Position numbers and translations under genes: made by a program. Positions 8,758 to 53,089 of a stretch of DNA of 64,000 nucleotides are shown here, one piece after another (position 1 is the stretch's first letter; the number at the start of each line of letters is the position of its first letter). Source of the DNA: an uncultured Actinomycetes bacterium (GTDB lineage Bacteria; Actinomycetota; Thermoleophilia; Gaiellales; JAICJC01); assembly GCA_963811675.1 (NCBI GenBank), contig CAWESH010000005.1:9749-73748 (forward strand). Direction: 5' to 3'. Below the pieces are notes generated by a model. It was not told the origin of the DNA. It did no database searches and saw only the letters and a list, made by a program, of their open reading frames with translations.

Positions 8758-8770
8758 TGCCCGTGCCCGA

Positions 8771-9649
8771 GTGCCGTCGGCGGAGGTGCGCGACCGCTTC
8801 CGACTGACCACCGCGGAGCTGACCGAGCACCTCGATCTGCTCAACCTGGTCAACTTCGGCGGCGGTTGCTACGCCGTCTACTGCTCGACCGAGAACGGCT
8901 CGATCATCATCGACAAGGAGCTCTACGGCGATACCTTCCGGCGGCCGGCGCGGCTCTCCCCGTTGGAGGCCAAGGCGCTGCTGCGAGCGCTCGACGTGGT
9001 GGCGCCGCTGCTCGCCGCCGAGGCCCACAGCTCGCTGGACACCGTGCGCGCGAAGGTCGAAGCGTCGTTCGGCCGGTTTGCACTCGCCGACACCCCCACT
9101 CCGGTCCAGCCCAACGCCGAGGAGTCGGTCGTCACGGTGCTGAACGAGGGAGTGCGATCGCGGCGGCTGGTCGACATCACCTACCTCTCCCGCTCGTCGA
9201 GCGAACTCACCTCGCGCACGATCGAGCCGTACCTGCTGCGCCGCGACGAGCGCGGCTGGTACGTGGAGGCCTACGACGTCAGCCGCGACGCCCGGCGGAC
9301 ATTCAAGGTCGCCTACATCAAGGACGCAACGCTCCGCCAAGAGCTCTACCAGCCCCGGCCAGAGATGTCCGACCTGAACCGGGCCCTCGGCGGAGACGTC
9401 GGCATCGCCCGCGTCCGATTCTCACCCAAGCGCGCACGCTGGGAGCTGGAGGGTCGCCGCGACGCGGTGGCCACCACCGACGAGGCGGCCGTGGTCACGA
9501 TCACCTACGGCTCACCCGAGTGGCTGATCCCCGAGATCATGCGATACCGAGGCGACGCCGAGGTGCTGGAGCCGCCGGCGTTGCGCGACCGCATCAAGGC
9601 CGACGCCACGGCGCTGGTCGATCAGCTGCGGGCCGTGCCCGCCGGCTGA
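8771..9649 (+). CDS. PafC-like HTH-WYL transcriptional regulator (true N-terminus upstream of the first available start codon)
   Basis: RLVDITYLSRSS..RTIEPYLLRRDERGWYVEAYD is WYL-like. The same frame is open and homologous further upstream (..PERFALLQALLAFLLASCGDDARARV, from ~8690). I found no ATG/GTG/TTG in that stretch before the GTG at 8771. Confidence 0.75.
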   Translation: MPSAEVRDRFRLTTAELTEHLDLLNLVNFGGGCYAVYCSTENGSIIIDKELYGDTFRRPARLSPLEAKALLRALDVVAPLLAAEAHSSLDTVRAKVEASFGRFALADTPTPVQPNAEESVVTVLNEGVRSRRLVDITYLSRSSSELTSRTIEPYLLRRDERGWYVEAYDVSRDARRTFKVAYIKDATLRQELYQPRPEMSDLNRALGGDVGIARVRFSPKRARWELEGRRDAVATTDEAAVVTITYGSPEWLIPEIMRYRGDAEVLEPPALRDRIKADATALVDQLRAVPAG

Positions 9650-10591
9650 GAGTTGGCCAGCGCCACCCGGGCGTTTCGCTGCAGATACCTGCCGTCGCGC
9701 TCGGGCACGTACAGCCGCTCATACCTCGCGGCGAGGGCGTCACCGTCGCTCTCGAGCCAGTCGCTCAGCGGCGGGTACACGTCGTCGACGGCATCCGGTG
9801 AGAGGTGAGCCGCACGGCGCTCGGCGCCCCGGTTCCACGGGCACACCTCCTGGCAGATGTCGCAGCCGTAGACGCGATCGCCGAACGCCGCGGGGAACGG
9901 CAGCTGCTCGAGCCGCGACTGCGAGAGGTAGGAGAGGCAGCTCGAGGAATCGAGCACCCCTCCGTCCAGGATCGCGTCGGTCGGACAGGCATCGATACAG
10001 GCCGTGCACGAGCCGCACGCATCCCACGCGGGGCTCTCGGGATCCGCGGCGGTCGGTGCCAGCTCGACATCGGTGATGAGCGCTCCCAGCACCACCCACG
10101 AGCCGTGCTTGCGCGTGATCGCAAGCGTGTTCTTGCCGTACACCGCGATCCCCGCTCGGGCGGCGGCCTCTCGATCGACGTGGTGGTTGGAGTCGACGTG
10201 CACCACGAACCGCGCGCCCGGCCGACAGCGCCTTGAGGTGCTCGCCCAGCCGACCGAGGTCCTCGCGCAGCGGCTGGTACTCGTCTCGCCGGGTGTAGCG
10301 GGGAAGTCGCCCGCGGGGCAGGTCAGCGGGCTTCTCGGGCTCCGGACGGGCGTAGCTTCGGGCAGCGACCACCACCGACCGAGCGTTTCGCAGCAGCCGC
10401 TCGGGGTGACAGGAGCGGTCGGTGTTGGTCATCGTGAACCGCATGTCGGCAAACAGGCCCCGCGCCCGGCGCTCGCCGATCAGCTGCTCGGTGCGCTGGT
10501 ACGGCTCGGCCCGGCACACGCCGCAGGCGTCGATCCCAATCCGCTCGGCATGCTCGAGCACGGCGGCGGTCAGCTGCGCGGGGCTCGTCAC
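9622..10591 (-). pseudogene. queG: epoxyqueuosine reductase, one frame break
   Basis: The N-terminal half is in ORF 9740..10591 (..MRFTMTNTDRSCHPERLL..). The C-terminal half is in ORF 9622..10206 (VHVDSNHHVDREAAARAGI..YGKN..GSWVVLG..CGSCTACIDACPT..CDICQEVCPWN). The join is near 10205-10215 in the +1 direction. Length is 970 nt (3n+1). Confidence 0.85.
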
Positions 10592-10604
10592 GAACTGAAG
10601 TGGA

Positions 10605-10904
10605 TCAGAAGCCGAGCACGAACTTGGCGTCGTCCGACATCATCTCGGGCGTCCACGGGGGCGTCCAGGTGAGATCGGTGACGACCTCGCCGACACCCTC
10701 CAGGCTGCGCACGACCTCGCCGATCTGTTGCTCGATCTGGGCTCCGGCCGGGCATCCCATCGAGGTCAGCGAGTAGGTGACGGTGACCTTCTCGGGCTCG
10801 AGCCGCACGTCGTACACCAGTCCCAGATCGACGACATCCATGCCGAGCTCGGGATCCTCGACGGCCCGCAGGGCCTCGAACACGTCTTCTTCGGTAACGC
10901 TCAT
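10605..10904 (-). CDS. DUF59 / metal-sulfur cluster assembly factor family protein
   Basis: 99 aa from the internal Met. VFEALRAVEDPELGMDVVDLGLVYDV..TLTSMGCPAG is typical DUF59. The start overlaps the upstream stop (ATGA). Confidence 0.8.
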   Translation of the reverse strand: MSVTEEDVFEALRAVEDPELGMDVVDLGLVYDVRLEPEKVTVTYSLTSMGCPAGAQIEQQIGEVVRSLEGVGEVVTDLTWTPPWTPEMMSDDAKFVLGF

Positions 10905-11755
10905 GCCCTCATCGTAGCCTTGGATTCCCACAGACGCGCGAATTCCCGCTCGTGGGTGAGCAGATCGTCGTGGCCGCTGAGCAGCCGCTTGGTCACCGCC
11001 AGCGCCTCCCGATCGCTGCGGGCAACCCGCGATGCGAGCGACTCGACCCGCGACATGAGCTTCTGGGGCGCAACCACCTCGTCGACCAGACCGAGCGCAC
11101 GCGCCTCCTCGACCGGCAGCACCTCGCAGGTGGCGAACAGCCGCAGCGCGACGTGCCGGCCGATCAGGTCGCCCACCCGCGCGGCCGCGCCCCACGGCGG
11201 TGAATATCCCAGCTCGTTGTGGATGAAACGCAGCTTGGCGCCCTGGGCGGCGATCCGCCAGTCACACGCCAGCGCGAGGTCGATCCCGCCACCCACGGCG
11301 TGGCCGTTGAGCAGCGCCACGGTGGGCACCGGCAGCACGGCGATCCGGCGACAGGCATCGGTGCCGCGAGCGGTCACCTCAGCCCCGCCCAGACCCTCCA
11401 TCGAGGCCAGGTCGGCACCGGCTGAGAAGAGCCGCGGCCCCGCCCCGGTGATGGCGATCAGACGAACGTCGGCGTCCTCGCAGAGCTCCTCGCACACGGT
11501 CGCCAGCCGCTCGAGCGTGTCCAGTCCAAGCGCGTTGTCGTGCCCGCGCAGCGTGACGATCGCAAAGCCGTTGCGGCGGGCGACGTCCACCTCGGTCGGC
11601 CCGCTCGGAGGGGAGCTTACAGACACCTCGGGCGCCGGCTGATCCTGCCCGTCGAGCTCGATCTCGAGCGCCTCGGCCAGCTGCACCTTGGACATCCGCC
11701 GATAGCCCTTGATGCCCGCATCGCGGGCACGATCGTGCAGTTGGTAGAGCAGCAA
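10901..11755 (-). CDS. enoyl-CoA hydratase/isomerase with N-terminal Rho_N/SAP-like helix-hairpin
   Basis: Crotonase core (FAIVTLRG..ITGAGPRLFSAGADL..VALLNGHAVGGGIDLALACDWRIA). The N-terminus LLLYQLHDRARDAGIKGYRRMSKVQLAEALE resembles the Rho N-terminal domain. Start taken as the TTG at 11755, with GGAGA 5 nt upstream. Confidence 0.8.
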   Translation of the reverse strand: MLLYQLHDRARDAGIKGYRRMSKVQLAEALEIELDGQDQPAPEVSVSSPPSGPTEVDVARRNGFAIVTLRGHDNALGLDTLERLATVCEELCEDADVRLIAITGAGPRLFSAGADLASMEGLGGAEVTARGTDACRRIAVLPVPTVALLNGHAVGGGIDLALACDWRIAAQGAKLRFIHNELGYSPPWGAAARVGDLIGRHVALRLFATCEVLPVEEARALGLVDEVVAPQKLMSRVESLASRVARSDREALAVTKRLLSGHDDLLTHEREFARLWESKATMRA

Positions 11756-11787
11756 AACGAGTCTCCGTCCGGTTGGGGTTAGGAAGG

Positions 11788-12801
11788 CTAAAGCCTGATC
11801 TCGGCGTGGCGATCCTGCGAGAAGAGGTGGATCGAGTCGACGAACCGCACCCGGTTGCAGCGCGAGCACAGGACGATCGAGTGGCTGCGCGCGCCCTCGG
11901 CCATGTACCGCACTCCACGGAGCAGGTCGCCGTTTGAGATCCCCGACGCGACCACGATCACATCGCCGCGCACGAGGTCGTCGATGCCGAAGATCTGGGA
12001 GATGTCGGTGATGCCGTACTCCGCGGCCCGATCGATCTCGGTGCGGCTCATCGGCCACAGCTGGCCCTGGATCTCACCGCCGAGGCACCGCAGCGCCGCA
12101 GCCGAGATGATCCCGCCCAGCGCGCCGCCGATGCCGATCGCGAGGTGGTCGTTGGTGCCGCGCACCGCCGCGTCGATGGTGGCGGTGATGTCGCCGTCGG
12201 AGATCAGCTTGATGCGGGCGCCGGCATCTCGGATCTCGGCGATCAGATCGTCGTGGCGGGGACGATCAAGCACGATCGCGGTGACGTCGGCCACCCGCCG
12301 GCCGAACGCGTCGGCGATCGCCTCCAGGTTCTCGGTGACGCTCTTGCGCAGATCGATGCGCCCCTTCGCCACCGGGCCCACCGCCATCTTCTTCATGTAC
12401 ATGCGCGGAGCGCGGGTCATCCCGCCGGGAAGCGCCGCCGCCAGGATCGAGAGCGCACCGGACTGGCCGCGGGCCAGCACCGGACCGCCTTCGACCGGGT
12501 CGCACGCGAGTTCCAGCTCGATCCCCCCGCCGCCGCCGAGATGGCTGCCCTCGGCCAGCGGGTGGTCCGATTCGGGCCGGCCGATCACGACGTGACCGTC
12601 GAGCCGCAACCGTCCCAGCGCGTCCACCATCGCGTCGGTGGCCGCCTCATCGGCACCCCGGGCGTCGCCCCGGCCGAGATACCTGCCGGCCGCGAGCGCA
12701 CACCGCTCGGTGACCGACACCAGCTCGGTGCATGGACACGGCCATGCGTCTCCCGCAGAGGCATCGAACTCGGCCGCTGCATGCATTGAGGGAACCGCCA
12801 C
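11788..12801 (-). CDS. glpX: class II fructose-1,6-bisphosphatase
   Basis: VTERCALAAGRYLGRGD..ADEAATDAM, DPVEG and IGGALGG..RCLGGEIQG..ASGISNGDLLRGV are GlpX-like across the full 337 aa, uninterrupted. Confidence 0.9.
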   Translation of the reverse strand: MAVPSMHAAAEFDASAGDAWPCPCTELVSVTERCALAAGRYLGRGDARGADEAATDAMVDALGRLRLDGHVVIGRPESDHPLAEGSHLGGGGGIELELACDPVEGGPVLARGQSGALSILAAALPGGMTRAPRMYMKKMAVGPVAKGRIDLRKSVTENLEAIADAFGRRVADVTAIVLDRPRHDDLIAEIRDAGARIKLISDGDITATIDAAVRGTNDHLAIGIGGALGGIISAAALRCLGGEIQGQLWPMSRTEIDRAAEYGITDISQIFGIDDLVRGDVIVVASGISNGDLLRGVRYMAEGARSHSIVLCSRCNRVRFVDSIHLFSQDRHAEIRL

Positions 12802-12806
12802 GGAAC

Positions 12807-13778
12807 CTAGCCTAGCGCGACCGTCCGCCCTCCGGCGCGCTCCAGGATCAGGTCGATCACGTCGACCAGCGCGGCGTTCATGTCGCCCGCCTCGATCACC
12901 GGCACGCCTGTGCGCTCGGCCCGTCCGACCAGATAGTCCTGAATCCGGCGGATCTCGCCGAAGCGCTGGAGATAGCGTTCCATCGCCCGCGTCCCGCCCG
13001 ACTCGTAGTCGCGAAAAAGGAAGTGCGCCTGGTGCACGTCCTCGTCGCTGATGGCGAGCACCACCTGCACCACGACGGCCGCATGATGCCGCTCGGGAAC
13101 GACCAGACCCGGCACCAGATGGATACCCTCGACCACGGTCGAGAGCCCCTCCATCACGGCCCGCTCGATGATCGCGTTGGCGCCCACCGCAACCTGCTCG
13201 GCCTGTTGGATGAAGCCGTACAGCGCCCGATCCTCGGCGTCGGGATCGGGCATCGGGATGCGCAGGCCCTCGCCGGCCTCGAACGAGGAGAAATGCAGCG
13301 CCGGCATCAGCTCCTGGGCGAAGAACGCGCGCATGACCTGGCGAACGGCGTCGGTTGACGTGATCCGGCTGATCCCCAGCCGAAACGCGATGTCGGTCGC
13401 CAGCGAGCTCTTGCCGGTGCCGGTCGCACCTCCCAGCATCAGCACCAGCGGCCGGTCGAGGTGCATCACCTGATGCCAGCCGTGGTAGCGGGCGAGCATC
13501 GCCGGCGTGTCCTCGCGGCCCAGAACGCCCTCGACCAGCCGGTGGAGCTGGTCGATCGACATCTCGTCGGCCCCGGACTCTCCCACCTCACGTTCGATCA
13601 CCTGGGCAAGCTGGTAGGCACGCTCGGCCTCGAACCCCGACAGCATCAACGTCTGCGCCATCCTGCCCTTCGAGTACGGCAGGCCAGGTCCGCGGCCGCG
13701 GATGCGCGGCTCCGCCCGGGGTTGCGGCGGCGCCGGGTCAGGCTGGCTCTCGCCGCGCCAGAAGCGGAGATCACGCAT
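12807..13778 (-). CDS. 2-phosphoglycerate kinase
   Basis: P-loop LVLMLGGATGTGKSSLA followed by RLGISRITSTDAVRQVMRAFF..LMPALHFSSFEA, characteristic of archaeal-type 2PGK. The ATG at 13778 overlaps the corrected stop of the upstream cpgS by 8 nt. Uninterrupted. Confidence 0.85.
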   Translation of the reverse strand: MRDLRFWRGESQPDPAPPQPRAEPRIRGRGPGLPYSKGRMAQTLMLSGFEAERAYQLAQVIEREVGESGADEMSIDQLHRLVEGVLGREDTPAMLARYHGWHQVMHLDRPLVLMLGGATGTGKSSLATDIAFRLGISRITSTDAVRQVMRAFFAQELMPALHFSSFEAGEGLRIPMPDPDAEDRALYGFIQQAEQVAVGANAIIERAVMEGLSTVVEGIHLVPGLVVPERHHAAVVVQVVLAISDEDVHQAHFLFRDYESGGTRAMERYLQRFGEIRRIQDYLVGRAERTGVPVIEAGDMNAALVDVIDLILERAGGRTVALG

Positions 13779-15103
13779 ATGCCGCCACCGCCTGATCGGC
13801 GAGCGCCAGCAGCGCCGTGTCCAGCTCCCCACTCCCGAGAATCGAGCGCGGACGATTGTCGCAAAAGACGATCCGCTTGCCTCGCTGTTCAGCCGCGGCT
13901 GCCACGACGTCGATGGCGGCGGCCTTCAACTCGACCAGAAACACGTCCGCTCGATCGACGTCGGGCTGCTCCAGGGCCGTCCCGCAGAGCGGCGCGATTC
14001 GAGAGTGAGCCCACCACCGCGGTCACCTCGGCGCCACCGTCCTGAAGCGTTGCCCGCAGCCGATCGTGGATGGCAGCCGGGGCGGTGGTGAAGTAGGCAA
14101 CCCGCTGACCCGAGACGTCCTCGGCCGGAACCGGCTCGAGCACGGTTTCGATTACCGGAATCCCCGGCCTCACCGTCTCAACCGCGGCTCGCACCTGCTC
14201 GACCTGTTGTGCCGATGCCAGTGGGGGCTCGCACATCGTCAACACCACCATGTCCGACACCAATACCCGAAATGGACCCATGCCCGTCATCAACTCGTGT
14301 GACGGTCGGACAGCCGACGTTACCAGCAAGGTGCGCTCGGCCGCAACCGGCGGAATGGCCGCACCCGAACCTTCGAGCAGCAGCATGTCCGGGCGGTCGG
14401 CCGCCGCCAGTTCGGCGGCCGCCCACACATTCGAGTCGTAGGTCGTGCCCGCCAGCCCGCCCCCACACCGGCGCGCGCCCACAGTGGGAACGCCGGCCAG
14501 GACGGCGTCCTCGAGGTAGTCGGAGGCGGCGTGCTGGCCGGCGCGGGCGCGCACCAGCAACTCGCGCGCCCCCAGCGTCGCCTGCGGTCGGATCCACCGG
14601 CGTCGGCTGGGCAGGCCCGCCCCGCCCCATGGCCACCACCACCACGCGGCGGCCGGCGGCCGTCACCAGACGGGCGGTGTGCGCCGAGACGGCCGTCTTT
14701 CCGATCCGCTTGCCGGTACCGATCACCGCCATCGTCGGCGCATCGACCGGCGGGCGCGGCCGGGGCCGGAAGTCGAAATCGGGGCCACTGTAGGAGAGGC
14801 CCGCGGCCAGCGCATGGCTGACCAGCCAGAACCGTCCCTGCTCCGACAGCACCGGCTCATCGGAGAGGTCGAGCACGTGTCGCGCCCCGTGGGCGCGTGC
14901 CGCCGCCACCATCGCCGCCGCCGGATCGTCGGAGACGCGCTTCAGCGGAAAGCCGTATTCCGGGTCGCCGTCCAGCTTCTCTCCCCCACCCAGCAGCAGC
15001 ACCGCCACCACCTCGCACTCCTGGGCGGCTTGCCCAGCGCCGCTCGCACCACCTCGGGGTGATGCTCGCCGTCGACCAGCGCCAGTGTGCGCTCCACGGT
15101 CAC
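13771..15103 (-). pseudogene. cpgS: cyclic 2,3-diphosphoglycerate synthetase, frame-broken as sequenced
   Basis: The GTG at 15103 opens VTVERTLALVDGEHHPEVVRAALG. Reading passes to the ORF 14178..15884 frame (EVVAVLLLGGGEKL..VIGTGKRIGKTAVS..VVVVAMGRGGPAQP). It then passes to the ORF 13889..14560 frame (LLVRARAGQHAASDY..LLLEGSGAAIPPV). The final frame reads ALEQPDVDRADVFLVELKAAAIDVV..AVAAYA*. Joins are near 15040, 14600 and 13950. Length is 1333 nt (3n+1). Confidence 0.8.
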
Positions 15104-15880
15104 CGCCCCGGGGCGGGCGAGAACTTCTCGTAGGTGAGCGTGACAGGAGAGAAGCGCACGATCGGCTCGCGGCCGTGAAACGGGAACCTGCGGTAGACGT
15201 GCACCTCGTCGGACGAGATCTCGACCACGTTGTAACAGGGGCGGGTGTTGCCCGCGCAGCCGCAGCGAGGACACCGTGCCCGCGTTCACCACAAACAGAT
15301 CCTCCAGCCGCCACGCGTACGGCACGTGCTTGTGTCCCGACAGCACCAGGTTGACACCCGCCTGCTGCAGCACCTCGAGCGTGTCCCCGGCATCGTGGAC
15401 GACGTTTCGCTCGCGTCCCGTGCCGGGGATCGGAAGCAGGTGGTGGTGCAGCACGAACACCCGGAAATCCGCCGGGGGTGCGAACTGCTCGCTGATCCAC
15501 GTGTAGCGGCCCCGGCCGATCGTGCCGTGATCGAGATCCGGCTCGGACGAGTCGACCGCCACGAACGTGATGCCGGATTTGCGCAAGACTGTGGAACGCG
15601 GGCCGATCAATTGCTCGAAATGGGTGTATCCCACATTCCTGGAGTCGTGGTTGCCCGGAATCGTGATCACGTCGGGGCAGTCGAGCCGGTCGAGATACCC
15701 GCGGGCATCGCGGTACTCCTGCTTGTACCCGAAGGTGGTGAGATCGCCGGAACACACCACCACGTCGGGTTCGAGCCGGTTGATCTCCTTGATCGCACGC
15801 TCGAGCAGGTTGGCGACGAAGTAGGGCGACCCACAGTGCAAGTCGGAGAGATGCGCGATGGTGAACGGCTTGGAAGCCAC
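15100..15880 (-). pseudogene. metallophosphoesterase (calcineurin-like), one frame break
   Basis: FTIAHLSDLHCG, VCSGDLT, GNHD, VLHHHL and SGHKHV motifs in ORF 14942..15916. After ..TVSSLRLRG the homologous reading (NTRPCYNVVEISSDEVHVYRRFPF..APGR*) is in the +1 frame from ~15255. The corrected stop overlaps the cpgS start (GTGA). The start (GTG 15880 or 15916) is uncertain. Confidence 0.75.
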
Positions 15881-15940
15881 ACACCGATCATATGCGCGAG
15901 TCGGCGGCATCCGCACCCGGGACTACCATTTTGAAGCGGG

Positions 15941-16303
15941 ATGCAGGAACACCATAGCTTTCACGCGTTCGTGGGAACGAGCCCCCCACGGTTCGCCGAC
16001 CCCGCCGAGCGCGAGTGCGCGCTGCTGTTCGATTACCACGGCATCCCGTGGGTCTACGAGCCCCACACGTTCCCGCTGGAGGTCGACGAGGACGGCACGG
16101 TGCTGGAGGCCTTCACGCCGGATTTCTACCTACCCGAACAGGATCTCTATCTCGAAATCACCACCATGAAGCAGTCACTGGTCACCAAGAAGAACCGCAA
16201 GATGCGCCGGCTACGGGAACTCCACCCCGAGATCCGGATCAAGCTGTTCTACCGTCGTGACATCGACGCGCTGGTGCAGAAGTACGAACTCGGCGCCGCG
16301 TGA
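15941..16303 (+). CDS. hypothetical protein, possible PD-(D/E)XK nuclease-like fold
   Basis: 120-aa ORF. ..FTPDFYLPEQDLYLEITTMKQ.. is loosely PD..(D/E)xK-like. The stop overlaps the hpt start (GTGA). Confidence 0.55.
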   Translation: MQEHHSFHAFVGTSPPRFADPAERECALLFDYHGIPWVYEPHTFPLEVDEDGTVLEAFTPDFYLPEQDLYLEITTMKQSLVTKKNRKMRRLRELHPEIRIKLFYRRDIDALVQKYELGAA

Positions 16304-16851
16304 GTGCCGCCGCCGACCCGCTGGCGCCGTGCACACCGGGTGACGTCTACCTCGGCCGCGAGCTGATCGCCGATCGCGTCGCGGAGCTCGGGGAGGCCAT
16401 CAGCCGCGACTATCGAGGACGAGAGCTGGTGATGGTCACGGTGCTGAAAGGCGCGGTGGTGTTCCTGGCCGATCTCTCGCGTGCCATCGCCATCCCCCAC
16501 CGACTCGAGTTCATGGCCATCTCCGCCTACCGCGGGGCGACGGCCGGATCGACCGGACGAATCCGGCTGTTGAAGGATCTCGACCGGCCGGTACGGGGAG
16601 CGCACGTGGTGATCGTCGAGGACGTGATCGATACCGGCCTGACGCTGCACTCCTTGCTCAAGACCCTGCGCTTTCGCGGCCCCGCGTCGATCGAGGTGTG
16701 CACGCTGCTCGACCGGCCCTACCGGCGGTTGGTCGATATCCCGGTGCGCTACTCGGGCTTCACGGCGCTTGACGGTTTCGTGGTCGGATACGGTTTCGAC
16801 TACCGCCAGCAGTTCCGCGATCTGCCCGATATTCACGTGCTGGAGAGCTGA
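16300..16851 (+). CDS. hpt: hypoxanthine-guanine phosphoribosyltransferase
   Basis: VTVLKGAVVFLADL, the PRPP loop VVIVEDVIDTGLTL, and GFVVGYGFDY. Confidence 0.9.
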   Translation: MSAAADPLAPCTPGDVYLGRELIADRVAELGEAISRDYRGRELVMVTVLKGAVVFLADLSRAIAIPHRLEFMAISAYRGATAGSTGRIRLLKDLDRPVRGAHVVIVEDVIDTGLTLHSLLKTLRFRGPASIEVCTLLDRPYRRLVDIPVRYSGFTALDGFVVGYGFDYRQQFRDLPDIHVLES

Positions 16852-20768: not shown

Positions 20769-22777
20769 GCGCGGCGAGCCGCTTCGGGCCCGACCGCCCG
20801 AGCGTACCGACGGGCGAGCATCCGCGCCTCGCGCGGATCGGGCCAGATCGTGATCGCCGCGCCCAGCAGGAACACCACTCCCGCCAGCCAGATCAGGCCG
20901 ACCATGGGGTTCACCAGCACCTTGACCTGGACGTCGCGACCCTGGATGCCCTGGAGGATCGCGTAGACGTCGGTGAGCGACGGATACACGGTGCGGATGT
21001 CAGCTTCGGCCGACTGGCGCTGATCGGCGTCGGTGAACTGGCGAATACCCGGCGAGATCGAGCCCGCCGGCTGGCCGTGATCGGTCACGTTCAAGCGCAC
21101 GCGCGCGGTGATCGAGTTCTGCTCGCGGGTCTGGAAGATACCGGCGTTGGTGAGCGTGTAGCCGTCCACCGACACCGACTGGCCGGGCTTGAGCAGTGCC
21201 TGGGTGGAGCTTCCGTACTCACCCGAGGCAACGACGCCGACCACCAGCAACACCACCGCCAGGTGCACCACATAGCCGCCGTACCGACGTCGGTTGCGGC
21301 CGATCAGCCCGATCAACGCGCGCGGATAGGAATCGCCGGAGAGCGCGCGCCGGGCCACGGTCCCGCGCGCGAACTCGAGCCCGATGCAGACCACCACGAA
21401 CACGCACAGCGAGAGCGCCGTGAGCCCCGCCGTACTCGACGCGAGGCCGAAGAACGACAGCACCACGGTGGCGGCCAGGGCGGAGACGATCGGCCAGCGA
21501 AAGGTGCGTATCAAGCTGCGCGGAGAGGCCCGCCGCCACGCGATCATCGGGCCGATCCCGATCAACAACAGCAGCGGCAGCCCGAACAGCACCAGAAAGA
21601 AGTTGTAGTAGGGGCTCGACACGGTCGACTGCACCCCCCGGGCGGCGTCACTCAGGATCGGGAAGATCACGCCCCAGATGACCGCGAACACCAGCGCCAG
21701 CAGCAGCAGATTGTTGAACAGGAAGGTGGCCTCCCGCGAGATCACCGACTCGAGCTTGTGGTCGGCGCGAAGCAGCGGCAGCCGCCACACGATCATCGAC
21801 GCGGCGAACACGAGCACCACTGCGATGAACCCGAGCAGAAACGGGCCGACCGACGACTGCACGAACGAATGAATCGAGTTGACGATGCCGCTGCGGGTCA
21901 GAAACGTCCCGAACAGGGCGAGGGCGAAGGTGGCCGACACCAGCGCCATGTTCCACACCTTGAGCATGCCCTTCTTCTCCTGCACCATCACCGAGTGCAG
22001 GAACGCGGTGGCCGCGAGCCACGGCATCAGCGCGGCGTTCTCGACCGGGTCCCACGCCCAGTAGCCACCCCACCCGATCTCGACGTACGCCCAATGGGCG
22101 CCCAGCAGCATGCCGATGCCCAGCGCCGTCCATGAGATCAGCGTCCAACGGCGCACGGACAGCAGCCAGCGAGCATCGGTACGGCCCGGTGACCAGCGCC
22201 GCCATCGCGAAGGCAAACGGCATCGCACACGACACGTAGCCGAGATAGAGCATCGGCGGGTGGATCGCCATGTAGGGGTTCTGCAGCGACGGATCGAGGC
22301 CCAAGGCCGGCCGTGGGCGTCGCGCCGGAGACCTTCTCGAACGGCGACGACACGAACGCCGTCATGCTGGCGAAGAACACCATCACCCCGCCGATCACCG
22401 CGGTCACCCACGGCATCAGCTCTCGGTTTCGATTGCGATTCTGGTAGGTCACCAGCGCCCCGCAGGCGGTCAGCACCGTCAGCCACAGAAGCAGCGACCC
22501 GGGCTGGCTGGCCCACAGCGACGTGATCGTGTACACCAGCGGCAAGCCGCGGCTGGTGTGGTCGACCACCTGCACCAGCGAGAAGTCGTGGGTCAGCAGC
22601 GCGTACTCGAGCGCAGCCACAGCCACCACCGCGCACGCGAGTGCGGCCACCAGCGCGTTACCGGCACTGCGGGCGAGCCGGCGGTCGTGGCGAAGGCCCG
22701 CCAAGCACCCCGGCGACGGTCGTGTAGATCGCCAGCGCAACCAGCACGTACAGGGCGACAGAACCGAGGGTGGTCAC
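20765..22777 (-). pseudogene. ccmF: cytochrome c heme lyase subunit CcmF, three frame breaks
   Basis: The GTG at 22777 (GGAGG upstream) opens VTTLGSVALYVLVALAIYTTVAG. Reading passes to the ORF 22138..22740 frame, then to the ORF 21648..22304 frame ([22 protein letters not shown]). It ends in the ORF 20765..22636 frame ([18 protein letters not shown]..). Each step is +1, with joins near 22690, 22310 and 22190. Length is 2013 nt (3n), so the three shifts cancel. Confidence 0.85.
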
Positions 22778-27985: not shown

Positions 27986-28328
27986 GTGGTGTTCGCGGTG
28001 CTGGGCATGCTGTCGCACGATGGCTCGGTGTTTGTGGCGGGCTTTGTGCGGGATGCCGTGCCACTCTTGGTGGGCTGGTTTGGCGTGGCCGCTCGTGGTC
28101 GGGACGTACCGCCACCCCAGCCGCGGGAAGCTGCTGATCACCTGGGCGATCGGGATTCCGCTGGGAGTCGCGATCCGAGCGGTGGCGCTGGGGCGGCATG
28201 CCGACGGCAAGCAGGCGGCCTTTCTGATCACCACCATGGTGTTCACGCTGGCGCTGGTGCTCGCGTTTCGCGCCGCGGGGGCGTACCTGGCTCAGCGATC
28301 GCCGGAGCGAAGCCAGAGTGACACCTGA
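27986..28328 (+). pseudogene. DUF3054-like small membrane protein, one frame break
   Basis: ..AAIVVFAVLGMLSHDG..FVRDAVPLLVGWFGVAA in the ORF 27929.. frame. Then LVVGTYRHPSRGKLLITWAIGIPLG.. in the ORF 27972.. frame, with a +1 join near 28085. Start is the GTG at 27986, or the ATG at 27929, which would translate through the palindrome. Confidence 0.5.
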
Positions 28329-29422
28329 CCGGGCTGAAGTGTCGATCCCACCACTCCCACCAGCTCGGTCGGACAGCGCGTCGAGATCGATCTGCTGACG
28401 CAGCCGGGTGCTGAACTCGTCCAGCGTCCTGGTGGCGTCGTAGCTGCTGCGGTAGAAGCGGTGGTCGACCAGCCGCTGCACCCGCCGGCGCACGGGGTGA
28501 AACGCGAGCGCGACCGCCAGCGTCGAGAGCGTCACCGCCACCGAATCCGACCAGCCCACCACGCTGCGAAAGCCCGTCGACAACAGCACCACCGCCCCCA
28601 GATAGAGGGCGCCCAGCGTGACCGCAACGCCTGCGTACACCAGCGTGCGCCGGATGATCACGTCGATCTCGTACAACCGGTAGCGAAAGATCGAGATGGC
28701 AAACGCGATCGGCAAGAGCGACCACGACGAGAACCACACGATCTCGGGGACCATCGTCGCTCGCCACGCCGATGATGACCATCACGACGAACGCGGCGAT
28801 GATCCATTTCAGCTGCTGGCGTTCGACGATCGTGCCGTGGCGGTAGCGCACCACCACTGCCGTAACCCCCGCTGCGAGTAATCCGAGCAGTGCGAACGCT
28901 GCAACGTTGAACGACGTACCCGGCCCCCGCGATGTACACAGGGTTGGGGATTCGCTCGTCGATCTGCGACTCCCCGAACACCGTCCCCAGCGTGGCGGCG
29001 GCGAGCGCGGCGCCTGCCACCCACGCCACCGGGCGCCAGCGCCGGGACGGGAGGTGGCCGTCCGGAATCAGCAGACCCAGGAAACACGCCGGCAACCCGA
29101 TCCCGACGATCCAGCCGGTGTCTCCGACCAGCCCCAGGGGCGTGGTGGCCGGCCAGCCCGTACCGGCGTTTTCGAAGTACGTCGCGCTCACGGCAGACAC
29201 GGAAATGATGAACGGCGTGACGCACAGGATCCACGCGAGGGCGTTCTTGGGTTGGCGCCCCACCACCAGGGTGCCCACGACCCCGTAGGACATCACGGCA
29301 AGCACGCCCGAGATCCCCGAGGCCACTCCGCTGGTGTCCCCGGCGGCGGCGAACACCACCAGGTTGATCAAGGTGACAACCGTCAACACGACGCCGATGC
29401 AGGTCGCGGTTCGGCCTGTCAT
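28292..29422 (-). pseudogene. multi-pass membrane protein resembling the N-terminal sensor part of a histidine kinase, three frame breaks
   Basis: Reading passes from ORF 28658..29422 to ORF 28243..28857 (VVRYRHGTIVERQQLKWII). It then passes to ORF 27963..28754 (IFRYRLYEIDVIIRRTLVYAG..VDHRFYRSSYDATRTLDEFSTRLRQQIDLDAL). The final frame reads ELVGVVGSTLQPGQVSLWLRSGDR*. No kinase core follows. All steps are +1 and the length is 3n. Confidence 0.55.
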
Positions 29423-29498
29423 GAGAGTGCTGGAGCGGATTGGTTCACCACGCTAAGTCTCCCACCGGACCGTTCCGGAGTCGTTACGGACGTCCGCG

Positions 29499-31586
29499 TT
29501 AGCAGTGGTCGCGGGGAAACTCATGCGTCCACGTGCGCGCGAACACCCGATGCCCACGTTCGCGCACGTCCAGCTCGGATGTGACCAGGAAGTGGGTGGC
29601 GGAGCTGGTCATCACCCCGGTCGCGCGGATGTCGACCCGGGAGTCCTCACGGCCGCCCACCGAGGTGTTCTCGACCCGCACCTCGGCCGACAGCGGATCG
29701 CCCTCAACCACGCTGTATGAGGCGACCGACGTGTCCTGATAGAGCAGCCCGTTGGGTATCCGGGTCAACGCCGCCCATGTCCCAGTCGAACGACAGCTCG
29801 GCGCGACCGCTGCCGAGGTCGCGGGTGACTGTTCGCGCCCCTCCGGGCCGGCCCTCGACCTGCTCGGTGGCAAGCGGCGCGGGCTCCTGCGGTGGATCGG
29901 GTGGCCGCGACGGGCCATCGTTCGGCCCTCGCCGGCCGCACGGGCAGCACCAGCTCGCTGCCCGCGCCGAGGTGCAGGGTGAGCGTCACAGGCTCGGGCG
30001 ACGGCCACGCCAGCGGCCAGTAGCACGGCGAGATCGACGAGCCGGATGCGGCTGCCGGCCTCGAATCGATGGGCGATCGAGTCGAGCTTGACGGTGATCG
30101 GATACTCCTGCCCCGGTTCCAGCAGGTGCCGGGTGTGCGTGGGAATCGCGATGGCAGAGGTTGAGCTGAGCGCGGGTCACCATGAGCGACGAACCGTCGG
30201 CGCGCAGCTCGCACAGCCGGACAGAGATCAGCGCCACCGGCCGGTCGGAGGACACCCCGACCGTGACCACCGGGAAGCCCAGGATCTCGAGCGGCTCTGG
30301 CAGCGGCGCGCCGGTGAACGTGAGCGAGCGGGCGTCGTCCACCGGCTGGTCGACCGGCAGGTCGGCCGAGCGGCCGTCGGCGCACCACGCGCCGCCGTCG
30401 AGACCGACGGTCTGGACGCTGCCGATGCTGCGCGTCAGCCCGTGCGACGCCGGATCGCCCAGCTCGCCGTCACCGAGCGCGAGCGTCAGCGGCTCGACTC
30501 AGCGGCGACGGCCACCGCTGCTCTGCCACCCACCGCCCCGGTCGCTGCTCCAGGTTGGCGCTGGGCGGCACCGAGTCCTGCATCCAGGCCACCACCATCG
30601 GCTCATGCGTCGATCCCGTTCTCGATGCCCTTCAGCCACCGATCCCACCAGCGCACGAACTCGCTCAGGATGCCGACCGCCGGGCCGGGGTTGCCGTGCA
30701 CCGGATCGTTGTGGCCCCACGGCCCGATCAGCGCCCGGCGCGGCACGTCGAGGCCCTCCATCAGCCGCAGCGCGGCGTCGTTGTAGCCGTCCGTCCAGCC
30801 GGCCACACACATCACCGCACACTCGATCTGGTCGTAGGCGCTCGCGCACCGCTGCCGTTCTCCCAGTACGCGTCGCGGCGCTGGTGCGCAAGCCAGTGCT
30901 CGATCCACGGCGGCTGCTCGAGCCGCTCCAGCCACATCTCACGCCAGCGCTCGCCGACCACCTCGGGGTCCGGCGGGCGGGCCTGCCAGGCGTGCATGCA
31001 GGTCGACCAGTGCACCATGTCCATCGGCTCGACCAGCCCGCCGCGGTAGTGCACGTCGTCGGCGAAGCGGTCGTCGGAGGCAAAGCACGAGGCGATCGCC
31101 TTCAACGCCGGCGGCCGCAGCGCCGCGACCTGGAGCGCATTGAAGCCGCTCCAGGAGTAGCCCATCATGCCGACCGCTGCCGGTGCACCACGGCTGAGCT
31201 GCCAGCCATGCGATCACCTCGACGCAGTCGGCCTGCTCTTGCGCGGTGTACTCGTCGCTGAGGATGCCCGTCGGACTCGCCACTGCCGCGGATGTCGACG
31301 CGCACACCGGCGTAGCCGTGACCCGGCGAACCAGGTCATCTGCTGGTGGTCGCCGGCGACCGTGCCGTCGTTGAGCCGGTAGGGCACCGCCTCGAGCACC
31401 GCGGGCACGGGATCGGCGATCGGCGTCGTCGGGCAGCCACACCCGCGCGGCCAGCCGGGTGCCGTCGCTCATGGGGATGAAGAGGCCGGTGCGGACGGTC
31501 GGGGTGCGGGGAAACGAGGTGACGGTGAGGGGGCGGTCAAGAGCGGGAGGATCCCAGAAACCGGCGATCACGCGGCGGCGCGGCAA
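29499..31586 (-). pseudogene. CocE/NonD (S15 X-Pro dipeptidyl-peptidase-like) hydrolase, at least six frame breaks
   Basis: Fragments spread over ORFs 30939..31586, 31214..31408, 30812..31168 (MMGYSWSGFNALQVAAL), 30603..30935 (VAGWTDGYND..GPWGH), 29986..30342, 29765..30388 and 29499..30026. The successive steps I could follow are all +1. Confidence 0.75.
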
Positions 31587-31610
31587 AGCCGATCAGGTAG
31601 GTTCTCGCGC

Positions 31611-33103
31611 ATGGAGCGGCCACCGACCCGTACGCGACCTGGACTGGGACGCCGACCGCGCTCGTGACCTGACCGAGCGGATGCTGGGCATCTGGAGCGA
31701 GCTGCTCGACGGCATGCGCGACCTGCCCGTCGAGCCGGGTCGAGCCGGCGGCCGACGTCGCCGAGGCGATGCGGCTGCCGATCGGTCTCCGAGCCGCTGG
31801 CGCCCGAGCAGATCGAGACGTCTGATGCGCGAGTTGGTGTTCGACCACTCCGCGCTGTGCGGCCACCCGGGATTCCTGGCGTACGTCTCCGGTGCCGGCA
31901 CCGTTCCCGGCGCCGCTGCCGACCTGCTGGCGTCGCGACTCAATCCCAACGTGGGCGGCTGGGTGCTATCGCCCGCGGCCACCGAGCTCGAGCTCCACCT
32001 GATGCGGTGGATGGCCGAACTGTTCGGACTGCCAGCCGGGCCGGCGGCCTGATGACGAGCGGCGGCGCCACCTCCAACCTGACTGCACTCAAGGCCGCGC
32101 GCGACAGCCGAGCCACCGGCGACATCCGCCGCGACGGGATCACCGAGCGGCTTGGCGATCTACACCTCCGCGGAGGCGCACGCCACGATCGAGGAGGCCG
32201 GGGACATGCTCGGCCTGGGGTCGCGGGCGGTGCGGCCGTCCCCACCGACGAGCGCCAGCAGATGCGCGTCGACCTGCTCGAGCAGGCTATCGAGGCGGAC
32301 ATCGCCGACGGTGTGCGGCCGATCGCCGTGGCCGCGACCGCCGGCACCACCGCCACCGGCTCGATCGATCCGCTGGACCAGGTCGCGCAGTGATCTGCCG
32401 CCGCCACGACCTGTGGTTCCACGTTGATGCCGCCTACGGTGGTGCGGCGATGTTCGCGCCGGCGCTGCGGCCCTTGCTGCGCGGCATCGAGCTGGCCGAC
32501 TCGATCACGTTTCGATCCGCACAAGTGGCTCTACACCCCCCACGCCAGCGGCTGCCTGCTGGTGCGAGACCCGCGCATCTGGGTCGCAAGCTACGGCTCC
32601 GACGCCGCCTACGTGTACGAGGATCGCGACCTCACCGGGCGCCGGCCGAGCTTCGGCGAGCTGGGACCGTCGTGGTCTCGGCCGTTCGTCGCGCTCAAGG
32701 TGTGGATGTCACTGGCCGCCCACGGACTGGACGCCTACGCCCGTCGGATCGCCCACGACGTGGATCTGGCCAGGTATCTCCACGCCGAGGCGACCCGCCG
32801 GGCGAACTCGAGCCGATGGCGCCGGTGGCGCTCTCGATCGCGTGCTTCCGATACGTGCCCGCCGACCTGCCGCCCGCCGCCGGTCGTGAGACGTACCTGA
32901 ATCGATCTCAACGAACGCCTGCTGCACGAGATCCGCGTGCACGGCCGGACCTTCCCCAGCAACGCCGAGATCGACGGCGCCTACTGCCTGCGGGCCTGCA
33001 TCGTCAACTACCGGGCCGAGGCCGACACATCGACGCTCTGCTTGACACCGCCGTGACCCTCGGACGGCAGCTGGATCAGCAGCTGCGCCCGTCAGTCGGG
33101 TAG
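31611..33103 (+). pseudogene. group II pyridoxal-phosphate-dependent decarboxylase, at least six frame breaks
   Basis: HPGFLAYVSGAGT.., [58 protein letters not shown] and ..FRYVPADL lie on different frames (ORFs 31459, 31857, 32152, 32390, 32424 ..). Confidence 0.75.
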
Positions 33104-34292
33104 CAGCGGCACCGACCAGCCCTGGTCGCGGCCCAGCAGCACCGCTCGCGTGATCGCCGCCGTGCCGAACCGCGCGCGCACCTGATCGACCGCCGCATCG
33201 AGCGCGCTGTCGCGGGCGCGCTCGAATGGGAGCATCAGCTGCATCGGGGTCTCGTTGTCCAGATTGGCCACCGCCACGCCGATCAGCGTCAGGCCGCGGT
33301 GACTGATCATGGGCGCGGCGAATGCCAGCAGCTGCCGGGCGGTGGACAGCACCAGCTGCGTCTCGGCGGTCGCAAACGGCAGCGTGTGCGACCGCGTCGC
33401 CCGCGAGAAGTCGTCGAAGCGAAAGCGCAGGACGACGGTGCGACCCGACCCGACCGGCGAGTCGCATCCGCCGGGTGACCCGGTCGACCAGCGAGATCAG
33501 GATGGCGTCGATCTCCTCCATCGACCGCCTCGATCGGCCCAGTGCCCGCTGCGAGCCGATCGAACGCCGCCGCCGCCTGGTCTGCACCGGCCGGGGATCG
33601 CGATTGTGGGCGAGCGCATGCAGATGCCTCCCCGAGGCCGCGCCCCAGCAGCGACACCAGCGCGGCCTCGTCCAGCCGGGCGACCTGGGCCACGGTCACG
33701 ATCCCCCGCTCGCGCAGCTTCCTCGACAGTCACCGGCCCCACGCCCCACAGCCGCTCCACCGGCAGCGGGTGCAGGAACTCGAGCTCTCCGTCGGGCGGC
33801 ACCACCAGCAGGCCGTCGGGCTTGGCCACCCCGCTCGCCACCTTGGCCAGAAACTTGGTGCGAGCGATGCCGACGGTGATCGGCAGTCCCACCCGTTCCA
33901 GCACCGCCCGCGCGCAGCCGCACAGCGATGTCGACCGGCGATCCGGCGATCCGCCGCATCCCGCGCACGTCCAGAAACGCCTCGTCGATCGAGAGCCCCT
34001 CCACCAGCGGCGAGGTGTCGTCGAAGACTCGGTAGACCGCCTTGCTTGCCTCGGAGTAGGCGGTCATGCGCGGCCGCACCACGATCGCGTGCGGACACAG
34101 CCCGCGGGCCTGCCGACCGCTCATCGCGGTGCGGACGCCGTGGGCCTTGGCCTCGTAGCTGGCTGCCAGCACCACACCGCCGCCGACGATCACCGCCCGT
34201 CCACGCAGGCGGGGATCGTCTCGCTGCTCGACCGACGCGTAGAACGCATCCAGGTCGGCGTGGAGAATGGTCGCCTCGGCCATATCGAACAT
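33092..34292 (-). pseudogene. dinB: second Y-family DNA polymerase IV copy, four frame breaks
   Basis: ILHADLDAFYASVEQRDDP..ASYEAKAHGVRTAM..SIDEAFLDV in ORF 33696..34292. Then GIARTKFLAKVASGVAKPDGLLVV..ERLWGVGP (33497..33904), then 33307..33699, then 32709..33587, then 33092..33352 (..RARFGTAAITRAVLL). Each step is +1. Length is 1201 nt (3n+1). Confidence 0.8.
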
Positions 34293-34360
34293 ATGTTCGC
34301 ATACACCGGCGGTCTACCGCAAAGATTGCGGCCGCGGCGGCACGTTCGGCCAGCCGGTCG

Positions 34361-35161
34361 TCACCCCAGCTGCTCGACCCAGCCGGCGAAGTCGGCCGTC
34401 GGGCCGGCCCAGCGCAAGATCGTCATCCTCGCTGAACAGCTCGGCACCGTCTCGGAGCGTGGCCAGATCCTTGAACAGCAGCGCCAGTTCGCGGCGTGTC
34501 GTCGCTGAGCACCTCGTCGGGGAACTGCCTCGATCGGCCCGTGCTGGTTCACCAGGCGCGCGGCCGTCACCCGGCCGATCCCGGGAATCCCCGGGTAGCC
34601 GTCGGCCGAGTCACCCACCAGCGCCAGCAGGTCGGGGATCAGCACGGGATCCACACCGAACTTCTCGCGCACCCCCTCGGCATTTCGGATCGCCTTGGCG
34701 CGACGGTCGACCTGCACCACCCGGTCGCCGCGAACGGACTGTCCCAGATCCTTGTCCGGCGTCCAGATCCGCACCTGCTCGACGGCGTCGTCGGCGTCTG
34801 CGATGCGAGCCGCCGAGGCCAGCCCGTCATCGGCTTCCAGCTCGATCATCGGCCAGATCGCGACCCCCATCGCGGCCACCGCCTGCTCCAGCGGCTGAAA
34901 CTGCGAGAACAGCGCGATCGACCCCCGCCCGGTCTTGTACCCCGCCCACAGATCGTTTCGGAAGGACTCGATCACGTGGTCGGTTGCCACCCCGATGTGG
35001 GTCGCGCCCTCCTCGATCATCTGCAAGAGCGAATGCAGAACACCGATGACTGCGCCGAACTCCACGTCCTCCGAAGCGCCCCTGCGCCTGCCGTAGAACT
35101 GGCGGAAGAGCTCGTAGGTGCCGTCGATGAGGTGGATGACCATCACCTGCGATGGTGCCAC
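34361..35161 (-). CDS. 5'-3' exonuclease / flap endonuclease (PIN-like), open but with an internally scrambled segment
   Basis: VIHLIDGTYELFR.., ELEADDGLA and GDSADGYPGIPGIG are FEN-like. Between ~34523 and ~34415 the expected sequence (DEVLSDDTP / RELALLFKDLATLRDGAELFSEDDDL) reads in the two other frames, and the listed frame returns for ..RWAGPTADFAGWVEQLG*. Confidence 0.75.
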   Translation of the reverse strand: MAPSQVMVIHLIDGTYELFRQFYGRRRGASEDVEFGAVIGVLHSLLQMIEEGATHIGVATDHVIESFRNDLWAGYKTGRGSIALFSQFQPLEQAVAAMGVAIWPMIELEADDGLASAARIADADDAVEQVRIWTPDKDLGQSVRGDRVVQVDRRAKAIRNAEGVREKFGVDPVLIPDLLALVGDSADGYPGIPGIGRVTAARLVNQHGPIEAVPRRGAQRRHAANWRCCSRIWPRSETVPSCSARMTILRWAGPTADFAGWVEQLG

Positions 35162-35165
35162 AGAA

Positions 35166-35496
35166 TCAATCGTCGGCGAACAGGATGAGGGCCAGCACGG
35201 CCCACATCAACAGCTCGGTCACGGCGTAGTCCAGCCACAGAAGCGCGATTGCGGGCGAGGCTGCCGGCGGCCCGCCGATGCAGTTCCAGGTGGCCCCGCT
35301 CGGCGCGAGCCCAGATATAGCCCCCGTCCTCGAGATCACCCGACTGGTAGCGGCACAGGAGCTTCACGAAGCTGTCCCTGCGGCCGCGTCCGGGACTGTG
35401 TGTGCGGGTGGTTGCCTGTCGGTCATGCACATAGTCGACCAGGAATCCCCGCCGCTGACCTCCGGCATTCTCCCAGTCCGGGTAGTATTGGGGCAC
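35166..35496 (-). pseudogene. small hypothetical protein with possible C-terminal TM tail in another frame
   Basis: ORF 35143..35496 starts MPQYYPDWENAGG... From ~35255 an alternative frame gives WNCIGGPPAASPAIALLWLDYAVTELLMWAVLALILFADD* (stop 35166-35168), which looks more protein-like than the Arg-rich listed tail. Confidence 0.25.
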
Positions 35497-52030: not shown

Positions 52031-53089
52031 CCGACGGCGACATCCTGGTGGTGAACGCCGGCTCGACCAGCCTCAAGCTGCGCGTGGTCGCACGCGACGG
52101 GCAGGCGACGGCGGTCGACTCACTGGACGGCGTTCGCGGCGAATCGATCGCGGCAGTCGGACATCGCATCGTTCACGGCGGGTCGCGCTACCGCGATCCG
52201 GTGCTGGTGGATGAGACGGTGCGGCGCCAGATGATCGAGCTGGAGGAACTCGCGCCGCTGCACAACGCGCCGGCCCTCGCAGCGCTGGACGACGCCCGCG
52301 CGCGGTTCCCCGACATCCCCCATGTCGCGGTGTTCGACACCGGTTTCCATGCGACCATCCCGCCCGAAGCGGCGATCTACGCGGTGCCGCGGGAGTGGCG
52401 CGAGCAATGGGGGATTCGCCGCTTCGGCTTCCACGGCCTCTCGGTCGCCTGGTCGGCCCAACGCGCCGCAGAGCTGCTGCAACCTCCGCCGTCTCCGCTT
52501 CGGCTGGTGGTGTGCCATCTCGGCGGAGGCTCGTCGGTGACCGCGGTGGTGGACGGGCGCTCGGTGGACACCACCATGGGCTTCACGCCGCTCGAGGGCG
52601 TACCGATGACCACACGCTCGGGCTCGGTCGATCCCGGGCGCGGTGCTGCACGTGCTGCGCCGTTCGGGCATGACGGTGGACGCACTCGAGCATCAGCTGG
52701 AACGCGAATCCGGCCTGCACGCCCTGACCGGCACCAGCGGAGACGTCCGCGATCTCGAAGCCGCAATCCGCAGCGGAGACGTCAACGCCAGACTCCCGCT
52801 CGACCACCTCAGCCTGCGTGTCGCGGGAGCGGTCGCCGCGATGGCCGTGTCGGCCGGTGGCATCGAGGCGCTCGTGTTCACCGCCGGCGTCGGCGAAAAC
52901 TCCTCGTTGGTGCGCGCGGCGGTGTGCGACCGGCTCAGATTCCTCGGCGTGCACCTCGAGCCGACTCGAAATCGGGACGCCGTGCCCGACTGTGACATCG
53001 CAGACGACAAATCGCCCGCTCGGATCCTGGTGGTGCACGCCCGGGAGGAACTGATCGCTGCCAGACTCATTCGCGCGTATCTGGGCTGA
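52012..53089 (+). pseudogene. ackA: acetate kinase, one frame break
   Basis: ILVVNAGSTSLK, VGHRIVHGG, LAPLHNP-like, FDTGFH, RFGFHG and HLGGGSS in ORF 52012... Then AVLHVLRRSGMTVDALEHQL..ESGL..GTSGDVRDL..FTAGVGENS in ORF 52643... The join is near 52635, where ccc ggg C gcg gtg has an apparent extra C. Confidence 0.85.

Follow-up and report, generated by a model that had tools for sequence, protein, structure and literature searches.

A cyclic 2,3-diphosphoglycerate-type gene cluster in a Gaiellales-type actinobacterium, with synthetase frame breaks that are probably assembly errors

In archaea, cyclic 2,3-diphosphoglycerate (cDPG) is made by two enzymes: 2-phosphoglycerate kinase (2PGK) makes 2,3-diphosphoglycerate (2,3-DPG) from 2-phosphoglycerate, and cDPG synthetase (cDPGS) transfers the gamma-phosphate of ATP and closes the cyclic pyrophosphate (PMC10690619, PMC12136491). 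The compound is described in these papers as limited to (hyper)thermophilic methanogens, and bacterial homologues of the enzymes are not mentioned in them. Here we analyze a stretch of 64,000 nucleotides (G+C about 68%) from an uncultured Actinomycetes bacterium (assembly GCA_963811675.1, contig CAWESH010000005.1; hereafter "the window"), which encodes homologues of both enzymes. Four co-directional genes, each abutting or overlapping its neighbor, occupy positions 11788-15910 of the minus strand: a metallophosphoesterase (MPE) gene, the cDPGS and 2PGK homologues, and glpX (Table 1). In the sequence as given, the reading frame of the cDPGS gene is interrupted and the 2PGK gene is intact. We conclude that this contrast is in all likelihood an assembly artefact, in which the breaks are single-base consensus errors and not biological inactivation. 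Judged from its sequence, the region very probably holds a normal, working version of a four-gene operon that is conserved in Gaiellales/Thermoleophilia and in certain other Actinomycetota.

Frame breaks in the synthetase gene and across the window

When the window cDPGS gene was aligned to the intact gene of locus L001, exactly three frame-changing one-base indels were found: a deletion near position 15029 and insertions near 14583 and 13979. The MPE gene carries one such insertion, near 15250, relative to its 269-residue orthologue in the syntenic relative L084. With the indels removed, the cDPGS gene matches the length of P0001, the nearest unbroken synthetase among the proteins searched (93% amino acid identity), and contains no internal stop codon. 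We polarized the changes in cDPGS with L001 and L002 and found 33 synonymous and 5 non-synonymous changes on the window branch, a ratio of non-synonymous to synonymous change (pN/pS) of 0.058. The intact branches, with ratios of 0.13 and 0.16, are constrained less tightly than the broken one.

Frame breaks are not peculiar to this gene. An earlier plot of third-position G+C (GC3) by frame proved too noisy, and it was replaced by a six-frame Viterbi segmentation that uses a codon-usage model trained on the window and flags same-strand frame switches that do not occur at a stop codon; the calls were then checked by homology. The segmentation recovered the known breaks and yielded 52 candidate junctions in 64 kb, some of which are probably false positives. 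Ten genes were stitched across their junctions and compared with NCBIfam. Seven of these gave continuous, near-full-length matches across the junctions (two DinB paralogues, QueG at 9636-10605, CcmF at 20790-22775, phosphoketolase at 49681-52025, acetate kinase and arginine deiminase), and the three partial matches were fragments of a CocE/NonD hydrolase and a pyridoxal-phosphate (PLP)-dependent decarboxylase. The stitched phosphoketolase, for instance, aligns over four junctions from residue 3 to 776 of 777 with positions 19-794 of a 799-position profile. The junctions are unevenly spread: about 25 of them fall within the 7 kb at 28000-35300, versus about 0.44 per kb elsewhere, and the consensus is probably of poor quality in this zone.

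The same picture emerged from a tblastn comparison of 21 L084 proteins with the window, which covers about 20 kb of synteny. This comparison revealed 13 frame changes in seven of the 21 genes (Table 1), with the remaining 14, 2PGK and glpX among them, in a single frame; genes of the window other than cDPGS have three, four or more breaks. A preliminary description of this DNA had counted three frame corrections in cDPGS and one in the MPE gene, and alignment to L001 and L084 gives the same count. It had also called 2PGK and glpX clean, and each is indeed read in one frame against its L084 orthologue. Its claim that only the synthetase is broken, however, must be given up, as the breaks extend over the whole window, and the selective decay of the synthetase that it implied finds no support in a gene with a window-branch pN/pS of 0.058 and no internal stops, lying among many unrelated genes that are broken as well.

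The character of the damage is informative. Relative to L084, the window carries 18 one-base insertions and 4 one-base deletions, mostly outside homopolymers, while natural bacterial indels are biased to deletions and to homopolymer slippage. After correction the genes are as long as their orthologues, and the damage consists almost wholly of one-base indels; no large deletions were found in the syntenic 20 kb. Within this block, pairwise pN/pS averages 0.21 for broken genes and 0.15 for intact ones. We found no convincing nonsense mutation there: a nucleotide-alignment scan flagged two in-frame stops, one in the intact HPRT gene and one in DinB, either of which might stem from the alignment itself close to the end of a gene or to an indel.

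Two assemblies of a single related species differ in a comparable way. L083 and L084 come from two samples and are 99.3% identical, and L083 contains about 20 clustered one-base insertions, mostly outside homopolymers. These lie within L083 positions 1-1700 and fragment the genes for DUF5122 and CcmF, which are whole in L084. This pattern is a technical signature, an error mode of such assemblies. In three further relatives whose names suggest long-read metagenome-assembled genomes (MAGs), L008, L014 and L020, it is 2PGK and/or glpX that is split over several frames, and cDPGS is clean. The contig names of the relatives suggest long-read metagenome assemblies, and the window, too, probably comes from such an assembly, prone to indels. 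Because the same type of break recurs in many genes, the broken genes are under purifying selection and show no convincing nonsense mutation, and the L083/L084 pair displays the same signature, the breaks are most likely assembly errors.

The breaks are nonetheless present in the sequence as given, and they could instead mean that cDPGS, along with the MPE gene, is a genuine recent pseudogene in a lineage that is losing cDPG synthesis and has kept the kinase and glpX. The clean state of 2PGK and glpX would fit this history, as would the somewhat high local density of breaks (see below) and the L001 and L002 loci, where cDPGS stands apart from 2PGK, so that the module is not always whole. To judge the density, we used a background of 0.44-0.78 breaks per kb. 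At this rate, three breaks in 1.33 kb have a probability of 0.02-0.09, uncorrected for the approximately 55 genes of the window, and zero breaks in 2PGK plus glpX a probability of 0.21-0.42; neither value is remarkable given that number of genes. We regard true pseudogenes as very unlikely, because similar breaks occur in 6 other genes within 10 kb on either side and in many more across the window, and because the purifying selection on the window branch comes without a single stop codon. Moreover, all checkable catalytic residues are kept, the nearest relatives are intact, and the bias to insertions outside homopolymers is unlike the deletion-biased indels that arise naturally in bacteria.

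One could also take every break as real, with cDPGS being one casualty among many of a genome-wide decay, and in favor of this are the approximately 50 candidate breaks of the 64 kb and their dense zone at 28-35 kb. We give this even less credence: the broken genes are under purifying selection much like the intact ones (0.21 vs 0.15), the 20 kb syntenic block holds neither a convincing nonsense mutation nor a large deletion, the corrected genes have the lengths seen in the relatives, and an identical clustered +1 pattern divides the two assemblies of one related species. Programmed frameshifting was also considered and rejected, as the breaks share no conserved slippery context, are of both signs, and do not occur in relatives with 81-93% protein identity. 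Consensus error thus remains the preferred account of the breaks, and every apparent pseudogene in the window calls for the same caution.

The four-gene operon and its relatives

Two of the gene borders in the cluster are visible from the sequence itself. The TGA stop codon of the MPE gene and the GTG start codon of cDPGS share the tetranucleotide GTGA, and cDPGS overlaps 2PGK by 8 nucleotides, with the ATG of 2PGK lying inside the end of cDPGS. A scan of positions 11500-16400 for promoters and terminators gave no result, such a scan being uninformative for a high-GC organism. Positions of these and other genes named in the text are collected in Table 1.

Table 1. Genes and regions of the window. 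Frame changes are those found by tblastn against L084; junctions are candidates from the Viterbi segmentation.
Feature	Position	Strand	Frame changes	Junctions	Remarks
Metallophosphoesterase (MPE)	15100..15910	minus	1		calcineurin-like, class III phosphodiesterase/GpdQ-like; first gene of the cluster
cDPGS homologue	13771..15103	minus	3		four frame pieces; 443 codons after correction
2PGK homologue	12807..13778	minus	none		ATP-cone and P-loop kinase; 323 aa, intact
glpX	11788..12801	minus	none		class II fructose-1,6-bisphosphatase; 337 aa, intact
Enoyl-CoA hydratase, Fe-S assembly P-type protein, QueG	10608-11755, 9628-10591	minus	1 (QueG)		same-strand run goes on 33 nt beyond glpX
PafBC	7522-9646	plus	1		split near 8630; L084 and L085 have PafB and PafC fused into a single 709-aa WYL/WCX gene
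DUF5122			2		
CcmF			3		
DinB			2		
Dense zone	28000-35300			~25	
CocE/NonD hydrolase	29515-31576	minus			in dense zone
PLP-dependent decarboxylase	31781-33026	plus			in dense zone
Second DinB	33093-34294	minus		4	in dense zone; matches 1-395 of 399-position profile
Phosphoketolase and acetate kinase pair	49681-53084	plus		4 and 1	full-length family matches once stitched
Arginine deiminase	56554-57769	plus		1	full-length family match once stitched

The operon is far from unique to this organism. A protein search for cDPGS relatives returned at least 7989 matches with E <= 1e-10; JGI labels many of these cDPG synthetase, and those with a name at NCBI come from Gaiellales. When each GTDB species was represented by a single genome, at least 595 genomes were found to carry a relative. 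We counted gene order in the best 80 of these at least 595 loci, which comprise 61 bacterial loci (from Gaiellales, Gaiellaceae, Thermoleophilia, unclassified Actinomycetes, Coriobacteriia and one "Eubacteriales" MAG) and 19 loci from Methanobacteriales. An MPE gene lies immediately upstream of cDPGS in all 61 bacterial loci, and a 2PGK homologue immediately downstream in 60; in the one exception, the sequence ends right after cDPGS. Where enough downstream sequence is available, glpX follows 2PGK in most cases (46/55). By comparison, MPE, 2PGK and glpX neighbors were found at none of the 19 archaeal loci. This genomic association points to cDPGS and 2PGK as a pair.

Every operon gene is whole in the syntenic relatives L083, L084 and L085, and P0003 and P0005 are encoded on contigs of 0.8-1.9 Mb that are syntenic with the window over more than 20 kb, where every gene is intact. 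The MPE is the most conserved of the four proteins, at 95% identity to L084 and at 83-86% in comparisons where cDPGS has fallen to 57-66%. Over the window and loci L003-L009, where the MPE stands at 83-95% and cDPGS at 57-81%, this suggests that the MPE is under the tightest constraint of the four and is not an incidental neighbor.

In a crude neighbor-joining tree of cDPGS, the archaeal proteins formed one clade and the bacterial proteins several deep ones, with identities down to 45% among bacteria versus about 40% to archaea. On the strength of these deep clades and identities, and with the tree as crude as it is, we rejected a recent horizontal transfer from archaea. The label "archaeal-type" would then reflect where the enzyme was first studied and not a recent transfer.

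A separate observation concerns L001 and L002, two metagenome contigs with intact cDPGS genes (7990-9358, corresponding to window positions 15114-13745) that are 92% and 85% identical to the window in nucleotide sequence but stand in unrelated contexts. A polysaccharide deacetylase and a formyltransferase are encoded upstream, and neither an MPE nor a 2PGK gene is nearby. Homology to the window runs from about 10 nucleotides before the start codon to 26 nucleotides inside the 2PGK gene, and in the tree both copies nest within the operon clade. It appears, then, that an excision or relocation followed the borders of the gene almost exactly. Among the archaeal loci (L039, L042, L049-L062 and others) are Methanobrevibacter and Methanobacterium MAGs, several from gut or rumen; given the type of sample, these carriers are presumably mesophilic. 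The cDPGS of L042 and L055 are 67-69% identical to the enzyme of Methanothermus fervidus.

Identity of the encoded proteins and a possible cDPG cycle

The stitched window synthetase matched the M. fervidus cDPGS structures 8ORK/8ORU over its full length in a phmmer search of the PDB (E 7.7e-89; query residues 5-442, chain residues 6-453), with about 40% identity over that length. De Rose et al. (2023; PMC10690619) identify the 2,3-DPG-, Mg- and nucleotide-binding residues of this enzyme. In the alignment to 8ORK, E45, K46, K145, R146, K149, T150, D208, E305, T353, E404 and K406 are all conserved, and the aligned motifs around the ligands read GGGEKL, HAASD, MCEP, FTTAP and VELKAAA. E45 and K46 belong to the partner subunit's N-terminal domain, and the K145/R146 pair contacts 2,3-DPG (PMC10690619). 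The Walker A motif, GTGKRIGKT, is that of M. fervidus. The paper's P335 could not be placed, as the deposited sequence has F at position 335. Neither the cDPGS pieces nor the corrected protein matched a model in Pfam or NCBIfam, the Pfam set used being one without PF27272 (CpgS_N), a domain that is precomputed on database relatives of cDPGS. As judged from these alignments, the window synthetase is a true homologue of archaeal cDPG synthetase.

That the protein is instead another member of the P-loop superfamily is the least probable of the alternatives weighed here. It could, for instance, be an arginine synthetase of the ArcE type (arginine + ADP + Pi <-> citrulline + NH3 + ATP; TK2200, Michimori et al. 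2024, PMC11032458) or act on a different phosphorylated acid. ArcE is a recognized distant relative of cDPGS that is widespread in bacteria (PMC11032458), cDPG is reported from thermophilic methanogens only (PMC10690619), and the partner kinase scores below its equivalog cutoffs, but the full-length identity of about 40% includes E45, K46 and the K145/R146 pair, the conserved neighbor is a 2PGK homologue and neither arcB nor arcC, the similarity of ArcE to cDPGS is termed "low" and cDPGS is taken as an outgroup in PMC11032458, and the window encodes a conventional arginine deiminase, an enzyme that rarely co-occurs with ArcE (PMC11032458).

The kinase was recognized by two NCBIfam models, PRK12337 (8.7e-87, 292 bits, equivalog cutoff 603) and PRK04220 (2.7e-82, 277 bits, equivalog cutoff 343), the latter over profile positions 13-292 of 306. 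Its ATP-cone was found by Pfam at residues 52-116 (28.7 bits, cutoff 25.8; 1.9e-06), and its translation carries the P-loop GGATGTGKS. It aligned in one high-scoring segment, at 92% identity, to the 325-residue L084 orthologue; a search against the PDB returned no match. The superfamily also includes mevalonate-3-phosphate 5-kinase, which the window kinase matched at 8.2e-20, and members with other functions. Because the superfamily is functionally mixed, we infer the substrate of the kinase from its cDPGS neighborhood.

The MPE belongs to Pfam family Metallophos (PF00149; 5.1e-19, 69.9 bits, cutoff 21.5) and is 95% identical to the intact L084 orthologue across two frames; its closest solved structures are Rv0805 (5e-13) and GpdQ (7e-10). 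The glpX product matched FBPase_glpX in Pfam (6.5e-105) and TIGR00330 at equivalog level (274.3 bits, cutoff 259.3), and is 97% identical to its L084 orthologue.

The gene identities, coordinates and order upstream of glpX given in the preliminary description are thus borne out by profile matches, a structure match and the L084 orthologues, and the GTGA overlap and overlapping cDPGS/2PGK pair that it reported are as stated. The full-length 8ORK match and the Gaiellales-type actinomycetotal context agree with its view of the genes as homologues of archaeal cDPG pathway enzymes in a bacterial setting beside glpX. It had raised the prospect that the reading frames belong to other P-loop families, and for the synthetase the 8ORK match argues otherwise. 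It had also allowed that the pair might be common and already functionally characterized in this lineage; common it is, with its neighbors in 61/61 (MPE) and 60/61 (2PGK) bacterial loci and the name cDPG synthetase assigned by annotation pipelines, but we found no characterization of its function. Literature searches that paired the name of the synthetase with Gaiellales, Thermoleophilia or actinobacterial terms brought up, within the papers covered, no work on these genes in bacteria, in keeping with the earlier statement that their role is essentially unexplored.

Homology, conserved catalytic residues, gene order and purifying selection support the operon. Four points weigh against reading the region as an ordinary, functional cDPG operon. 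First, that cDPG is the product in bacteria is itself something we infer from the genes. Second, the 2PGK homologue falls under both NCBIfam equivalog cutoffs. Third, cDPGS and the MPE gene together hold 4 breaks in 2.1 kb, somewhat over the local background. Fourth, cDPGS evolves faster than any other operon gene, with 81% amino acid identity to L084 vs 92-97% for its neighbors.

If the bacterial enzymes follow the archaeal chemistry, the kinase would convert 2-phosphoglycerate to 2,3-diphosphoglycerate, and the synthetase would use ATP to close an intramolecular pyrophosphate, giving cyclic 2,3-DPG. From gene order, the phosphodiesterase-type MPE would most plausibly reopen or dephosphorylate this product, and GlpX may link the cDPG pool to gluconeogenesis. 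The cDPG itself could serve as a solute and/or as a phosphate and carbon reserve. A cDPG-hydrolyzing activity has been reported from Methanothermobacter in older literature, and no gene is known to have been assigned to it. We tentatively suggest, as a possibility that we hold to be doubtful, that mesophilic soil Actinomycetota (Gaiellales and relatives, and some Coriobacteriia) make cDPG and run it as a cycle, in which the MPE is the cDPG hydrolase and GlpX feeds the released carbon into gluconeogenesis. If this is true, cDPG would be a buffer of phosphate, energy and carbon rather than a thermoprotectant, and if bacteria make cDPG at all, its accepted role in thermoprotection would need widening. 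In either case the operon is real, widespread (at least 61 bacterial species genomes) and experimentally unstudied. It is a source of mesophilic enzymes for making cDPG and holds a candidate for the gene that breaks cDPG down, and its significance lies with the whole clade and not with the window alone.

Comparison with described systems

The nearest counterparts of the window locus are clusters in public MAGs (e.g. L003, L004, L084 and L085), which have the same four genes in the same order and on the same strand. In the closest of these, identity to the window is 81-93% for cDPGS and 92-97% for its neighbors, and the wider synteny is also that of the window, running through CcmF, PspA, HtpX, HPRT, the operon, enoyl-CoA hydratase, QueG, PafBC and DinB. 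The window copy is set apart from these clusters only by its one-base indels.

Among characterized proteins, the M. fervidus cDPGS shares with the window protein its two-domain length, its Walker A motif and the ligand residues listed above. The hosts differ: M. fervidus is a hyperthermophilic methanogen, whereas the window comes from a mesophilic-type, high-GC actinobacterial lineage in which the product is deduced from genes. The archaeal 2PGK (PRK04220/PRK12337) has the same ATP-cone and P-loop architecture as the window kinase, which matches its profile over nearly the full length. The class III metallophosphodiesterases Rv0805 and GpdQ are matched by the MPE over the catalytic domain, although distantly, and lack the strict operon coupling to cDPGS that the MPE displays. 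Finally, ArcE (TK2200) is a distant P-loop family, formerly unannotated or mis-annotated, that is found in an arcB/arcC context, whereas the window cDPGS keeps the residues that contact 2,3-DPG.

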